From Rubripirellula sp. (GTDB lineage: Bacteria > Planctomycetota > Planctomycetia > Pirellulales > Pirellulaceae), in the NCBI GenBank assembly GCA_965216875.1, contig OZ244207.1, positions 5,184,001 through 5,248,000 on the forward strand: a DNA stretch of 64,000 nt, read 5' to 3'. Below, one piece after another: positions 50,911 through 56,862 of the stretch (positions within the stretch are counted from its first letter, which is position 1; each line of letters starts with the position of its first letter). Both the position numbers and the translations under genes were made by a program. The notes below the pieces were generated by a model. It did not search any database and was not told the origin of the DNA. It saw nothing but the letters and a program-made list of their open reading frames with translations.

Positions 50911-51418
50911 TCGTTCTCGCAAAACGGCGTGCCAAAACCCATGGCGGGACGCCAAGCCGAGCAAAATGTGGTTTGAGTAACAAAAAGCGCGCCTGCGACG
51001 CGACTTTCTGGAACCTGAAATCTAGCGCGTCAACGAGTTCCTGGCGAGGCGGGTAGGCATGCGCGTTTCACTCGCGTCGTGGCAATGGCGTTTCGATGCC
51101 GCTGTCCGACGTCACCTTTCCGCTGTCAGGCCACCTTGCCAGGCCACATCGAAATCTCGATTTTCGTATTGCACGCCGCTGAGACATACTGTCTGTTGTT
51201 AATGGGAAACACTGGGGATCAATTCGAGGCACAATGCGCAATTGTTGCCCACAAACGCTCCGGTCTACGTATCCTGGTACTTACGGTTCCTGACGGGAAA
51301 GCCTTCGACCTTTGGCCTATCTGAACGCAATCCAAAGCGAGCGAGGCAGTGTGAACGCAATCTCCACACATCGGTTTGTGAAGCAATTAACTCTTCTTTT
51401 CAAAGGGATAACGGGGTC

Positions 51419-53431
51419 ATGAAATCGAGATCATCGATTTGGACGTGTACTGGCATGGGGCTCGTCTGGAGCCTGTTGGCCGTCACCGTGATGAGCAGCT
51501 TTTCTGCCGCTGCAGAGAGTGATTCGAAAACCAAAAAATCGGACCAACTGCAATCACCAACTCACCGGCAAGTCCGGATGATCACGCCCAAGGTGAAGGG
51601 TAATCCGGTCGAACTGCATACCATGGCAACCAATGCCGATGGGTTGATCGTGGCCGGCGTTTCATCGGGCTCGCAGGGCATGGTGCTGTTGATCGATTCC
51701 GAAGGCGAAACCAAATCCCAGTGGAACCTCGAGTTGACTCCAACCGGCGTCACCGTCGCGCCGGACGGAACCATCTTTGTTGCGGGCAGTGGCCGAATTG
51801 CTGAACTTGGCCAAGACGGCGAAGTTACAAAGATGATCGATTCGCCTCACGTCGGTGACATTGACGAACTCAAAAAGAAGACGGCCGACGCGATTCGTCA
51901 AAGCCGCAAACAGATGAGCGCATCGTTCGGAAAGCAGATTGAAATGCTGAAAGAACGGATTGCCGACATCGAAAAGAAAGAGGAAGCCGATCGCAGCAAG
52001 CTCGAGACGGCCCAGCTTGACGCGTTCGAGCAACAACTCGAGATGATCGAAGCCTATGCGGCACCCGAAGACGCTGACATTCCGGACGAGTATTTGAATT
52101 CAGCGATTCAACAGTCGTTGAACGTCACGTCGATGGCTGCTTCGGACAAGGATGTCTTCTTGTGTGCGATGGATCCTGGCGGTGGCGGCTATTCCGTATG
52201 GCGAGTTGGCCGAGACCTCGACACCGAATCGGCAGAGATGATCATGGACGGCCTGCGCGGTTGCTGCGGCCAAATGGACATTCAATGCTGCAACGGGCAA
52301 CTTGTCGTCAGTGAAAACACCAACTTCAAAATTGCAGTCTACGATCGCAACGGACGAGCCCAAAACACCTTTGGTCGTCGTGACCGAACCAGTCGAGGCG
52401 GTTTCGGAAGCTGTTGCAATCCAATGAACTCACTTCCCATGGCCGATGGCACCGTCCTGACGGCCGAGTCGTCGATTGGACACATCAAACGATTTGACAT
52501 GGACGGCAACCTCGTCGCGTATATCGGAAAAGCATCGATTGGCGGTGGCTGCAAACACTGTGCACTTGGGTACGACGAAGAAAATGACTTGTACTACATG
52601 ATGTACGAAGACAAGAACGCAATCTGCGTGCTTGCCAACAACGCTGACACTCCGATGTCGGTTGCCGAACAAGAACTCGAACAACGTCGCATCGACTTTC
52701 TGGCGCAAGCGGCTGGCAAATGGGATGTGGACGAAGGCAAGGCGGACGAAAGTTCGACCGGCGGTCTGTTGAGTCTGTTCGGTGGTGGTCGCGGTGGGTC
52801 ATCACAACACCCCGTGACATCACTGCAAATCGAATCCAATGGCAACGCCAAAATCCTCGACGGGATGTACAAGGCTTACGGTGATGTCGCCGGCCTTGAA
52901 TTGATGCAATCGGATTCGGAAGAGGAATTCGCTTTCGCACTGGCAATCGACCAAGTCCGCTTCCTCGAAGGCACTTGGAAGTTTGAAAGTGATGATTCGG
53001 CAACGGTCTCGTTCCAGGGTCTCACCAGCGTGAAGATGAAACGTGACGCTGCAGCAGACAAGAAGTGTGCCGGCGCAAACTGCAACGACGAAAAATGCGC
53101 CGACGAGGATTGTCCCAATCACAACAAACCTGCCGAAGCGGATGTCGCGGACATTGTCGTCGCCATCGACTCGGTCGAAGAGGCGATGGAGGATTTCGAC
53201 GGCTCGTTTGACCAAGCCTACGAGTTCTCCTCGACCGCTTTGACGCCCAAGTTTGAATACAAACTGGTCGGCAGCGGAAAACTTGGCGACGAGCCCGAAT
53301 CCGCACTCAATGAGCTTGGTGCCGATGGCTGGGAATACTGCGGCCGCTTGGGCAAAAAACTGATGTTCAAACGTGCCGTTTATGAAACCGGCGCATTGCT
53401 CGGCCTTACCGATCTTTCAGTCGAAGAATGA
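51419..53431 (+). CDS. Exported Cys-rich NHL-type beta-propeller protein with a C-terminal DUF4177-like domain
   Basis: Signal peptide; PTGVTVAPDGTIFVAG; LRGCCGQMD, GSCCNPMN, GGGCKHC; FEYKLV...LNELGADGWEY. ATG at 51419. Confidence 0.75.
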   Translation: MKSRSSIWTCTGMGLVWSLLAVTVMSSFSAAAESDSKTKKSDQLQSPTHRQVRMITPKVKGNPVELHTMATNADGLIVAGVSSGSQGMVLLIDSEGETKSQWNLELTPTGVTVAPDGTIFVAGSGRIAELGQDGEVTKMIDSPHVGDIDELKKKTADAIRQSRKQMSASFGKQIEMLKERIADIEKKEEADRSKLETAQLDAFEQQLEMIEAYAAPEDADIPDEYLNSAIQQSLNVTSMAASDKDVFLCAMDPGGGGYSVWRVGRDLDTESAEMIMDGLRGCCGQMDIQCCNGQLVVSENTNFKIAVYDRNGRAQNTFGRRDRTSRGGFGSCCNPMNSLPMADGTVLTAESSIGHIKRFDMDGNLVAYIGKASIGGGCKHCALGYDEENDLYYMMYEDKNAICVLANNADTPMSVAEQELEQRRIDFLAQAAGKWDVDEGKADESSTGGLLSLFGGGRGGSSQHPVTSLQIESNGNAKILDGMYKAYGDVAGLELMQSDSEEEFAFALAIDQVRFLEGTWKFESDDSATVSFQGLTSVKMKRDAAADKKCAGANCNDEKCADEDCPNHNKPAEADVADIVVAIDSVEEAMEDFDGSFDQAYEFSSTALTPKFEYKLVGSGKLGDEPESALNELGADGWEYCGRLGKKLMFKRAVYETGALLGLTDLSVEE

Positions 53432-54297
53432 TGCGAACGTTCGCCAGTCTTTTCGCCGCGATCGCGATGATCGCGGCGTCCGTCCCCGCATTCGCTGACC
53501 CGTTTGTCTTGGTGGTCATGGACCCATTAAGCAAGCCACTGTCATGCGATTGTGTTCAAGGATACGCCCAGCGCGAGTACAAACTACTCGGCAAACACCT
53601 CGAGGCTGAATTAGGTCGCGAAGTAAAAGTCGTTTGGTATGAGTCGCTTGCCGAAGCACTCGATGAAACCGATGGCCACGCTGACTTGGTGATCGGAAAA
53701 CACTCGGTCGTGTTGGCCGATGAGAAATCGACGGGACATCAAGTCAAACCGATTGCTCGCTTGACGGGCAAGGATGGGGAAGTCGATCAAAAAGGTCTGA
53801 TCGTCGTTCGCCGAGAGGATTCGGCAACGTCACTGAGCGACTTGCAGGACTATCGAATTCTGTTTGGCCCAACCGACGCCGAAGAGAAATCATCGGCACC
53901 CGAGGCCGCTCTTGTCGCCGCCGGTATCGAGCTCTCGAAGAAACGAGAACGATTCGGAGCATGCAGCGAGGCGGCGACTGCATTGTTGAAACTGCCCGCG
54001 GACACCGACGCGGCTGCAGTGATCAGCAGTTATGCCGAACCACTGCTCGAAGGCTGTGGTTCGATCAAGAAAGGGGATCTTCGGGTTGTTGGCGAAACGC
54101 AGCCCGTTCCGTTCATCACCGCGTTTGTCGCCGAGGACATGCCGAGCGACCTTTGTGCTCAAGTTGAAATCGCATTGGTAAAGGCTGGCACGAAACCAGA
54201 GTTGCTGCTCGGCCTGGAAACACTTGCCGGGTTCCTAACTTGGGAAACCAGCAAGCCAGCACCAAAAAAAAAAGTGACCACAGCAAACCTTCGATAA
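53428..54297 (+). CDS. PhnD/SsuA/transferrin-family solute-binding-like protein
   Basis: Signal peptide (AFA-D); Y..LGKHLEAELGREV, GLIVVR...SLSDL, LRVVGET.PVP; ATGA overlap; ends shortly after an A10 run. Confidence 0.75.
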   Translation: MMRTFASLFAAIAMIAASVPAFADPFVLVVMDPLSKPLSCDCVQGYAQREYKLLGKHLEAELGREVKVVWYESLAEALDETDGHADLVIGKHSVVLADEKSTGHQVKPIARLTGKDGEVDQKGLIVVRREDSATSLSDLQDYRILFGPTDAEEKSSAPEAALVAAGIELSKKRERFGACSEAATALLKLPADTDAAAVISSYAEPLLEGCGSIKKGDLRVVGETQPVPFITAFVAEDMPSDLCAQVEIALVKAGTKPELLLGLETLAGFLTWETSKPAPKKKVTTANLR

Positions 54298-55442
54298 CCA
54301 ACGCTGCGGATTGGTCTCAGTTTCGTGGCTCGGATCGATCGGGCCGTGTCGCGCATCTTCCTGACCGACTTCCGACCGAACAGGACTTGGTTTGGGAAGT
54401 TACCTTGCCAAGCCCCGGCGTTGGTGGCCTGATGGTTGCCGATGGAATGGTCATTGTCAGCGGCCGTGATGCTACCGATCGCAAAGACCGATTCACTGCA
54501 TTCGACCTGCAATCGGGCGACCAACGTTGGGTGTTTCAATACGATGCTCCAACCGACCTCGACTATGGCAACACACCGCGAGCAACACCGGTTTGGGTCG
54601 ACGGTTTGTTGATCACACTTGGTGCCACCGGAATGCTGTCGGGGTTGGATGGACAATCGGGGGTGCCGCTTTGGCGGATTGATTTGGCACAAGAATTTGC
54701 TGCCTCCGTGCCAACCTGGGGATTCAGTGCGTCGCCGCTTGTCGTCGGCGATCACCTCTTTGTACAAGTCTCAGGCGATGCCTCCCTGGTCGCGATCGAC
54801 ATGATCAACGGCCAGACCCAATGGCAGGTCAAGGGCGCCGAACCGGCGTACGCTTCGATGATGTTGGACATCGACGGCAAGACGATCCTTGGCGTCGACC
54901 AAGACGGCTACTTCGCACGTTCGAGCAAAGGCGGCGAGTTGCTTTGGTCACTCGAACCAGAGATTTCGGGTGACTTCGGCGTCCCGTCTCCAGTCGTCTT
55001 CGATGCAGGTGTGGTGTTCACTGGCGAAAACAACGGCGTTCAATTGATTGGCCGACAGGGCGATTCGTTAGCGAAATCCCGCGCGGCTCTGAACGACCTT
55101 TTGATTCCTGATTCACACACCCCGGTTTTGGTCGACGAGACACTTCTTGTCGCTTACGACGGTTTGCACGGACTCGATGTCACCGACGACTTGGCAGAGC
55201 GTTGGTCGATTGGCGAGTCGATCATCACGACCTATGCATCCATCATTGCATCGCCAAATCGTGTACTCGTGATGACCGAGGAAGGGGTATTGGCTCTCTT
55301 CGAATTTGACGACCACAAAGCGAAGTTGCTCGACAAACAAACCATCGCCTCGTCCAAATCGGCTGTCCTGTCGCACCCCGTCGTGGTCGGTGATCGGCTT
55401 CTGGTTCGACTTGGCAACGTGGTCCGTTGTTTCAGGCTGTAG
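54240..55442 (+). CDS. PQQ-like (BamB-type) beta-propeller; probably the C-terminal part of a frameshift fusion
   Basis: DWSQFRG, YGNTPRATP, WGFSASPLV, PAYAS, SHPVVVGDRLLVR; no signal peptide; only a TTG inside the upstream gene. Confidence 0.85.
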   Translation: MGNQQASTKKKSDHSKPSITNAADWSQFRGSDRSGRVAHLPDRLPTEQDLVWEVTLPSPGVGGLMVADGMVIVSGRDATDRKDRFTAFDLQSGDQRWVFQYDAPTDLDYGNTPRATPVWVDGLLITLGATGMLSGLDGQSGVPLWRIDLAQEFAASVPTWGFSASPLVVGDHLFVQVSGDASLVAIDMINGQTQWQVKGAEPAYASMMLDIDGKTILGVDQDGYFARSSKGGELLWSLEPEISGDFGVPSPVVFDAGVVFTGENNGVQLIGRQGDSLAKSRAALNDLLIPDSHTPVLVDETLLVAYDGLHGLDVTDDLAERWSIGESIITTYASIIASPNRVLVMTEEGVLALFEFDDHKAKLLDKQTIASSKSAVLSHPVVVGDRLLVRLGNVVRCFRL

Positions 55443-55464
55443 CAGATTGGGCCTTTGATTCCGT

Positions 55465-56862
55465 ATGAAGTTACCAACCCGCTACCCACTGATCCAAGAT
55501 CTCGGCTACCCCGATGGCGTGCCCGAAGCACGCCGCCGCTGGGTTGCTGATGCCAAAATGCGTCGACGTTGGCAACATCTCGGCCCCATCATTGCTGCGC
55601 TCGTGGTCACGATGACGTTTTCGATGTTTGGCGTCCTGCCATGGGCTCTTCGACGTGTTGCATCGCCGCAACAACTGGCCAACCAGCTCAATGCGCCGAT
55701 GCCAATGGGCAACGCTCATCTCGGCGCCGAGTATTACAACATCGCTTCGGCGATGGTCGACGGTCGCGGGTTTGCAGACCCTTTTGTGATCGAAACGGGT
55801 CCTACCGCGTGGATGCCACCGCTGCTGGTTTGGCTGCAAGCCGCTCTCATCTCCGTGCTTGGTGGCGATCGTTTTCTTGTCATGCTTGCGGTGGTCTTAT
55901 TGAAAACGATCGTGCTGGCAAGCTGCGCGGTCCTGATCGTTCGACAAGGCAATCGATCGCTCACAGGCTGGGCAGCCTTTGGCGTGATCTGCCTGTACTT
56001 CGTCTCCGAGCACCATGACTGTTTCGCATTCACTCATGACAGTTGGCTGATTCTTGGATCAGTCACCGGTACCCTTTGTGGGTTGGTCTGGGTCGATGGC
56101 AACCTTCGCCGTGGAACCTGGACGCTCGGCAAAACGATCGCTTGGGGATGTTTCGGCGGAATCGTCGCGTTGTCGAGTCCTGTGGCCGGTTTCGCCTGGG
56201 CCGTCGGCACGACCTGTTGCATGTCAGTTCGCGCGCCGAAGGCTTGGATCGCAGCAGGGATCATTTCGATGGCTGTGATTACACCATGGGGGATTCGAAA
56301 CAAGGTCGTGCTGGGAAAATTCGTCCCGATCAAAAGCAACGTCTTTTTCGAGTTTGATCAATCGATGGCCGTTGATAACGACGGCCTGCTTGATTGGTCC
56401 ACCTTTGCAACGCACCCTTACCACGAGAATGCCGAACGCAAGAAATATGCACAGATGGGTGAGATCGCCTACTTGGAAACGAAGAAGGAACGGTTCTTTG
56501 ACCAAGTCGCCGCCAACCCTCGTAAGTACGCCAATCGCGTTAGCCTTCGACTGTTTGCAACAACCGTCTTGCCGATTGGATTCAGTGGCTACAAACAGGG
56601 CAGTTGTTCGCTTCCGCTGCGTTGGTTGATCTACCCACTGCCACTGATCGCAATCATCGTTTTGGTCGGGTTCTGTCGGCCGCTGACACCGATCCAAAAG
56701 TGGGCGATCGTTCTGTACGCCGCGTATCTATTTCCTTACGTCCTTTGTTCCTACTATCCGCGGTACGGCTTCCCCCTGATCGCAATTAAGATGCTGCTCT
56801 GTTTTTGGGTGATCGAGGCGATTGTGCTCCGATCGCGTAAGTCGCAATCAGGCGTGGTATAA
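55465..56862 (+). CDS. Polytopic membrane protein, GT-C-like
   Basis: AEYYNIA...GRGFADPF..ETGPTAWMPP, ITPWGIRN...FVPIKSN, YPRY. Confidence 0.65.
   Translation: MKLPTRYPLIQDLGYPDGVPEARRRWVADAKMRRRWQHLGPIIAALVVTMTFSMFGVLPWALRRVASPQQLANQLNAPMPMGNAHLGAEYYNIASAMVDGRGFADPFVIETGPTAWMPPLLVWLQAALISVLGGDRFLVMLAVVLLKTIVLASCAVLIVRQGNRSLTGWAAFGVICLYFVSEHHDCFAFTHDSWLILGSVTGTLCGLVWVDGNLRRGTWTLGKTIAWGCFGGIVALSSPVAGFAWAVGTTCCMSVRAPKAWIAAGIISMAVITPWGIRNKVVLGKFVPIKSNVFFEFDQSMAVDNDGLLDWSTFATHPYHENAERKKYAQMGEIAYLETKKERFFDQVAANPRKYANRVSLRLFATTVLPIGFSGYKQGSCSLPLRWLIYPLPLIAIIVLVGFCRPLTPIQKWAIVLYAAYLFPYVLCSYYPRYGFPLIAIKMLLCFWVIEAIVLRSRKSQSGVV

Follow-up and report, generated by a model that had tools for sequence, protein, structure and literature searches.

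How could a β-propeller whose reading frame has neither an ordinary start codon nor a signal peptide be made, and carried out of the cytoplasm? The question is raised by one locus in a stretch of 64,000 nucleotides (nt) from Rubripirellula sp. (contig OZ244207.1, positions 5,184,001 to 5,248,000), hereafter the window, to which all positions without a prefix refer. Here a gene for a PhnD-like periplasmic binding protein ends shortly after a run of ten adenines (A10), while the frame of a PQQ-type β-propeller lies open across the same run at an offset of -1 (table 1). An earlier examination of the letters alone, which we call the sequence-only reading, had proposed that a slip at this run joins the two parts. 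The A10 is very probably a conserved programmed recoding site of some kind, and the features of the sequence and of its homologues make slippage of RNA polymerase the probable mechanism.

A Propeller Frame without a Start

In the frame of the upstream open reading frame (ORF) the run is read CCA AAA AAA AAA GTG and includes the heptamer A_AAA_AAA, with 24 nt between the end of the run and the end of the 0-frame TAA. The downstream frame contains no ATG or GTG 5′ of its W-x-x-F-R-G motif (W at 54312), and possible starts for the propeller in the window are limited to TTG 54240, ATT 54174 and ATA 54294. Extension of A10 to A11 would yield a fusion computed at 671 amino acids (aa). The run with its heptamer, the -1 frame without ATG or GTG and a fusion of about 670 aa had been described by the sequence-only reading and were found again; overlooked, however, was a TGA that shuts the +1 frame immediately 3′ of the run. 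The upstream ORF matches Pfam family PF12974 (Phosphonate-bd, E 2.7e-23) and the downstream frame PF13360 (PQQ_2, E 1.4e-22). The A10 is not a product of chance, because long A/T runs are so rare in this 8.26-Mb single-contig genome: 5 of length 10 and 14 of length 9, making 19 of at least 9.

Conservation of the Run, the Offset and the Propeller

We collected 197 homologous loci; the two scans used in collecting them kept the best 80 of 448 and the best 80 of 402 matches, so that the sample leans to close relatives. The downstream frame is offset by -1 in 144 loci (-1 splits), in frame in 32 (fusions) and offset by +1 in 4; the other 17, most of them at contig ends or stand-alone copies, have no propeller match and were left out. 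Made non-redundant at 80% identity, the set numbers 125 loci: 95 splits at -1, 27 in-frame fusions and 3 splits at +1. The longest A run in the overlap of the two frames of the 95 splits is A9 in 74, A10 in 10, A8 in 8, and A13, A7 and A6 in one each, so that 93 have A8-A13 and 85 have A9 or longer. Elsewhere on the same strand of these loci, runs of at least eight As occur 6 times in 721,480 nt, a background that predicts about 0.1 in the 10,952 nt of overlap. The fused loci serve as controls, since 25 of the 27 are without the run and have As in stretches of six or fewer. The sequence-only reading had suggested looking for an A run with the same frame offset among orthologues, and 93 of the 95 split loci keep it; the contrary outcome, that orthologues are in-frame fusions, holds for a minority (27/125), against 95/125 that are split at -1. 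The commonest form of the site is NNA AAA AAA AAG followed by a stop, and the 0-frame stop comes within 6 nt in 82 and within 18 nt in 91 of the 95. In 14 split loci the overlap measures 19 nt or less, which pins the shift to the run.

The propeller frame itself is under purifying selection. The ratio of nonsynonymous to synonymous substitution rates (dN/dS) lies at 0.03-0.17 in 15 of 17 pairs of split loci, the other two being saturated, and is similar to that of the upstream domain; between the window and a contig of another strain (X5), 11 of the 13 differences in this frame are synonymous. An ATG precedes the propeller in 3/95 split loci, and any of ATG, GTG or TTG in 34/95. By a hydropathy rule, which is not a signal-peptide predictor, a hydrophobic leader stands before the propeller in 2/95 loci and before the binding protein in 93/94. 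A propeller that is selected, yet nearly always lacks both an ATG and a signal peptide, must be reached through the run. Natural fusions have the same architecture: there are 414 longer homologues, and among the matches listed 120 of 120 carry PF12974 together with PF13360, the nearest one having 679 aa and 64% identity, as against the 671 aa predicted in the window. The combination of conserved run and offset, fusions of equal size and selection on a propeller without a start supports the earlier proposal that one locus gives rise to a free binding protein and to an exported fusion. One homologue, L178, consists of two true genes, with an ATG and a hydrophobic leader of the propeller's own and no A run. 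The genome of the window also has a paralogous cassette of NHL, PhnD and PQQ parts at C1:2184604-2188100 (L019, L199), in which A9-G-TAG, with its A9 at C1:2186936, shows the same offset.

Table 1. Features of the recoding locus and of the gene preceding it (positions in the window)
Feature	Position	Strand	Remarks
NHL-type β-propeller gene, exported, with coiled-coil insert	51242..53431	+	Likely start ATG 51419 or 51455; stop overlaps next start (ATGA)
PhnD/PtxB-fold periplasmic binding protein, default product 289 aa	53428..54297	+	Signal-peptide-like N-terminus, CxC motif
A10 slip site (putative)	54264..54273	+	No indel in two strains; A8 or longer in 93/95 split homologues
TGA of the +1 frame	54275..54277	+	Products of A9 or A12 transcripts would have a C-terminal lysine run (282 or 283 aa)
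TAA of the 0 frame (unslipped A10 transcript)	54295..54297	+	ORF analysis
-1 frame: short linker and PQQ_2/BamB-like β-propeller	54168..55442	+	No ATG/GTG start, no signal peptide; C-terminal part of the predicted 671-aa fusion

Polymerase, Ribosome or DNA?

We propose that RNA polymerase would realign on the A10 and release mRNAs of mixed length. From unslipped or +1-shifted mRNA would come the PhnD-like protein in its free, exported state, 282-289 aa long and with its C-terminus at the lysine run or close to it. One additional A (alternatively four more, or two fewer) would lead instead to a fusion of 670-672 aa, whose signal peptide and binding domain, identical to those of the short product, would take the PQQ-type propeller with them into the extracytoplasmic space. 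Each cell would accordingly contain free and propeller-tethered binding protein in proportions set by the run. Directly shown are the DNA, the conserved run, offset and stops, the natural fusions and the purifying selection acting on the propeller; the occurrence of slippage, its transcriptional nature and its rate, like the export of the products, are what we infer.

The A9 runs fall into the three codon phases 62, 9 and 3 times, one phase being dominant, and the codon immediately 5′ of AAA AAA AAN has A as its last letter in 68/76 loci, by means of 11 different codons, against a background of 13% at four-fold sites and 20% before AAA. The presence of A9 in all phases, combined with the A at the end of the preceding codon, suggests that the length of the run is selected, although six As would be enough for A_AAA_AAG. 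Stops in the +1 frame are also close: 54/95 splits have one within 18 nt, a share that is 18% in the interior of the propeller and 15% in the linkers of fused loci (median distance 16 vs 73.5 nt), and among 15 loci of non-PhnD gene pairs 11 have one within 8 nt. A clean -1 shift never enters the +1 frame, while transcripts of mixed length do, and early +1 stops consequently favour slippage. The genome has three genes for tRNA-Lys(CUU), the presence of which is a condition tied to slippage in Thermus in PMC5009743.

Several observations weigh on the other side. The direction of the shift is almost always -1, and single direction points to ribosomal frameshifting according to PMC3711429; on the side of slippage stand the intact A10 runs with the opposite, +1 offset in L031, L208 and L285, which may be real or assembly errors. 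Some A_AAA_AAN is in frame in 95/95 splits (A_AAA_AAA in 86), and all 8 A8 cases read AAA AAA AAG. The A6 of L060 and the A7 of L084 fall short of what classical slippage requires, and both loci retain the split, with L060 and the A7 partner L078 keeping a selected propeller. Immediately 3′ of the run the raw folding energy is -16.2 kcal/mol, below the -12.9 kcal/mol of the control site, and the excess of +1 stops is still partly there 18-48 nt past the run (a stop within 9 nt in 18%, against a background of 11%), so that composition may contribute to it. The loci are related, and binomial P values overstate accordingly. Finally, at least eight returns to constant fusion in the tree discussed below indicate that the short form is dispensable in some lineages. 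As a side observation, L177 resembles the three +1 loci in having an A9/A10 run with +1 offset, plus an early stop; all four may be real variants or assembly errors.

How do the rival explanations fare against this evidence? Programmed -1 ribosomal frameshifting on A_AAA_AAA or A_AAA_AAG, perhaps aided by the nearby 0-frame stop, would produce the same two proteins from mRNA of uniform length. In the classical cases of A_AAA_AAG, those of Escherichia coli dnaX and IS3-type elements, a stimulator resembling a Shine-Dalgarno (SD) sequence lies upstream and a hairpin or pseudoknot downstream. Such frameshifting would fit the -1 offset of 95/98 split loci, the 77/95 runs ending in AAN phase (with G next in 73), the 0-frame stop within a few nucleotides, the in-frame A_AAA_AAC or A_AAA_AAA that the A6 and A7 exceptions keep, and the single-direction rule just mentioned. 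It leaves unexplained, however, why nine As should be selected, why A9 should also occur in other phases, why +1 stops come early and why the classical stimulators are not enriched. SD-like sites are found in 16% of loci vs 20% of controls at -5 kcal/mol, with an anti-SD motif other than one derived from this genome; hairpin z-scores show no excess over the control (-0.55 vs -0.51), and no hairpin lies within 29 nt of the run in the window, in a test confined to hairpins. A_AAA_AAG is in frame in only 61/95 splits and absent from the window, the run is three As longer than needed, and tRNA-Lys(CUU) is present. We regard ribosomal frameshifting as unlikely, if still a real contender; the choice between it and polymerase slippage, which the sequence-only reading had left open, leans on this evidence to the polymerase. 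Sliding of ribosomes on consecutive AAA codons, in either direction and alone or together with polymerase slippage, would fill both other frames and hence account for the double stop, and PMC4363877 reports a truncated product with three consecutive AAA codons; since the same text finds robust sliding in E. coli at 11 As, and 92/95 runs here are A8-A10, we give it little credence.

The remaining alternatives place the cause in the DNA or dispense with the run. Phase variation, in which the run changes length in the DNA and cells switch between split and fused states, could claim the in-frame fusions L186 and L076, which retain A10 or A11 (L186, sister to a split locus, shows the short-form stop one frame over), as well as the few +1 states. 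Loci with the A run are nevertheless distributed 93 : 2 : 2 among -1, in-frame and +1 states, which is no mixture; two strains agree on A10, and the length is held at nine instead of being expanded, so this idea of the sequence-only reading retains very little weight. It is highly implausible that the locus comprises two translationally coupled genes, the propeller starting from TTG 54240 and the run being incidental: that TTG exists, and L178 is a true two-gene form without A run, but 61/95 splits have no ATG, GTG or TTG before the propeller, 93/95 have no signal peptide there and 93/95 keep the run. Initiation at the same TTG would also yield the downstream tryptic peptide once proposed as proof of the fusion, which lies entirely after the run and does not serve that purpose. 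As to a homopolymer error of sequencing or assembly in a plain fusion gene, which the single-contig assembly and the frequency of natural fusions might suggest, we compared the stretch with contigs from 4 of 20 listed sequencing runs (X1, X4, X5 and X6). Contigs drop rare variants, and the comparison is therefore blind to minor length variants. Those of X1 and X4, taken from a single sample that may itself have supplied the assembly (depth 125 and 397), have 0 differences and 0 gaps across the stretch; that of X5 has 20 substitutions over 53905-56000 (2,096 nt) and spans the run with 0 gaps; that of X6 does not bridge it. With no indel in contigs of two strains, an identical offset in 144/197 loci from many assemblies and no run in most plain fusions, we reject this explanation, the probability of which is practically negligible.

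Comparison with dnaX and Other Recoding Systems

Four of the 19 long runs in the genome have at least 200 open codons on both sides: three lie in putative fusions of the kind treated here and the fourth in dnaX. The latter has an in-frame A10 at codon 395 (C1:4930636-4930645, minus strand; L201), with stops in both other frames. In the family, 27 of the 30 dnaX loci examined (of 60) have A9 or A10 at codon 395-458, followed within 21 nt by a stop in the -1 frame in 22/27 and in the +1 frame in 22/27, with A_AAA_AAG in 4; a 28th locus (L405) has A10 between two ORFs. The pattern matches that of Thermus thermophilus dnaX, for which PMC5009743 and PMC1088944 describe an A9 yielding tau and gamma. 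The family of the propeller locus resembles this gene in its run of about nine As, in the stops near by in both other frames and in the predicted long and short products; it differs in polarity, as here the short product would be the default and the long one would need a slip, and in that the products are presumably exported and that what is added is an entire domain of catalytic type. A9/A10 runs lying in frame were seen as well in the non-dnaX genes of L376, L379, L321 and L322, where one or both of the other frames close early.

A likeness in gene arrangement is offered by the two-ORF dnaX genes of Chlorobi and others (9-10 As) and by the chlD chelatase cluster (PMC3711429), in which adjacent ORFs have an offset of -1, poly-A at the junction and in-frame fusions elsewhere, as here; a 9-A chelatase cassette gives 40% shift in E. 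coli according to the same source. These are cytoplasmic enzymes belonging to one gene family each, unlike the present proteins. That survey included 2 Planctomycetes genomes, and its main text has no PQQ or phosphonate entry. In Shigella, slippage in mxiE, spa33 and mxiA sets the ratio of long and short forms of envelope-related products (PMC5009743); this concerns one secretion system, whereas the signal considered here is found in unrelated gene pairs across a bacterial class. We found no report of the PhnD|PQQ family, or of such a signal in planctomycetes, in a literature search that had most subscription papers, the GeneTack database and one supplement of PMC3711429 outside its reach. The class of mechanism is known; its present use and spread appear not to be in print. 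Few families of non-mobile bacterial genes are known in which recoding is well supported, and to these the locus would add a class-wide case with a sharp signature.

History of the Split and Fused States

Was the split gained once or many times? A tree built from 23 fused and 80 split loci (103 of the 125, the 22 representatives with partial domains being left out) needs 10 state changes, 9 of them forced by strongly supported branches, while shuffles average 21; a FastTree version needs 9. A single clade of fused forms is rejected (approximately unbiased test, p 0.00085). With the root placed by the analyst, in a quick tree search, on six fused entries, of which five belong to other classes, the most economical interpretation is that the split was gained once and was followed by repeated returns to fusion.

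Reuse of the Signal in Other Exported Proteins

The combination of an A run with a closely following stop appears to join at least five other exported domain pairs in the family, one of them in this genome. At C1:541414-546173 (L198:5415-10174), a ThuA-domain protein with a leader (C1:541414-542517) ends, as assembled, at A10-G-TAA and continues in the -1 frame for 1,244 codons with SGNH, DUF7133 (PVC-type heme CxxCH) and cytochrome c domains. Among the 30 loci closest to it, 13 are plain fusions, 14 have no partner and 3 are split, all three of the latter at A10 (two at -1, one at +1); the relatives of the ThuA|SGNH-DUF7133 locus within the genus are plain fusions.

A blind search for A9-G-TAR in 201 genomes of the family gave 57 matches, all of which were examined. 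The stop ends an ORF of at least 150 aa in 28 of them, and 25 of these ORFs are continued for at least 150 aa at an offset of -1, while no such continuation exists at +1. The 25 junctions comprise 13 of PhnD|PQQ, 1 of ThuA|SGNH-DUF7133, 5 of (DUF1080-)ThuA|NPCBM-DUF7133, 1 of DUF1080|ThuA-NPCBM, 4 of DUF1080 with a sugar-binding domain (all in one genus) and 1 of a cytochrome c protein with a sulfatase; the families known from a single locus are less secure than those of PhnD, NPCBM and DUF1080. In a sample of the class, 3 of 21 new loci are -1 junctions, 5 further matches standing outside this count. In other classes of the phylum, A9-G-TAR was at a -1 junction in 0 of 22 examined matches, with 3 more outside the count. 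A second pattern, in which the stop comes four bases after A9, gave 57 matches; the 30 examined include 1 junction at -1 and 10 in-frame cases, 8 of which are dnaX. Other offset A8 runs in the genome (e.g., C1:6987799-6987806) were dropped, being in reverse-strand shadow frames or before ordinary starts.

From this distribution we are inclined to think that Planctomycetia use a portable element, about A9 plus stops in both other frames, as a general and evolvable device for making long and short isoforms of exported multidomain proteins. If so, it would be a bacterial counterpart of alternative C-termini, in which a downstream domain without a start borrows the signal peptide from upstream, and which would have arisen separately in six or more unrelated domain pairs, with many switches to and from plain fusion, by exploiting the same property of the polymerase as dnaX. 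Several of the unrelated exported proteins in which the signal seems to be reused are PVC-type heme proteins typical of planctomycetes, and the exported proteome of these bacteria would then hold many unannotated fusions. Annotation pipelines break such genes in two and assign to the second half a false start, with no signal peptide, and the long products are thus absent from databases.

Further exported domain pairs with A9/A10-G-TAR and the -1 frame were noted at L237, L243, L293, L295, L296, L288, L303-L306 and L251. Candidates only are a HEAT|AhpC-TSA pair with a downstream frame of 145 aa (L248:1504), two loci with a glutaredoxin-like upstream part (L326:1308, L325:160) and a short ORF before a frame resembling an outer membrane protein (L242:1504).

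The Cassette and Its Possible Function

The sole conserved neighbour is the NHL-type propeller gene upstream, present in 62 of 67 loci with long flanks. Its product has five invariant cysteines and invariant GCCG, CCNPMN and CK motifs. The predicted structure is confident (predicted local distance difference test, pLDDT, 93) and has its best matches in NHL-domain proteins; no Pfam family was matched, and NCBIfam and Atlas give weak NHL leads (best score 0.83). The binding protein shares its fold with PhnD, PtxB and AioX (template modelling, TM, score 0.6-0.64, E 1e-16), with PF12974 above the cut-off; it differs from them in being 12-20% identical, in having a CxC motif that is kept in 124/125 homologues and in the absence of a conserved permease or ATPase gene adjoining it in the 67 loci. 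It falls below the NCBIfam cut-offs for PhnD (TIGR01098, 40.5 vs 112; TIGR03431, 19 vs 261), just as the PQQ propeller falls below the equivalog cut-offs for BamB (TIGR03300, 53 vs 285) and PQQ dehydrogenase (TIGR03075, 36 vs 480). In six loci the binding protein is alone. The context of a phosphonate ATP-binding cassette (ABC) transporter was sought and not found. Together with the NHL propeller, the proteins may, tentatively, form an extracytoplasmic, thiol-dependent module for ligand binding or redox chemistry rather than a phosphonate ABC importer, in which free and tethered forms of the binding protein might both be used.

In two distant loci (L334:3093-10283 and L335:975-10489), a PhnD-like gene lies directly 5′ of genes for a ferredoxin, a NapH/NosR-like membrane protein and a further propeller; L334 also has NHL and PQQ genes, and L335 NuoEF-like and glutamate-synthase-small-subunit-like genes. 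Elsewhere in the genome of the window, repeated tRNA clusters with several Lys and Asn copies occupy C1:593000-657000, and the ARAGORN predictions include a tRNA-SeC (C1:7784436) as well as one tRNA whose anticodon is CUA.

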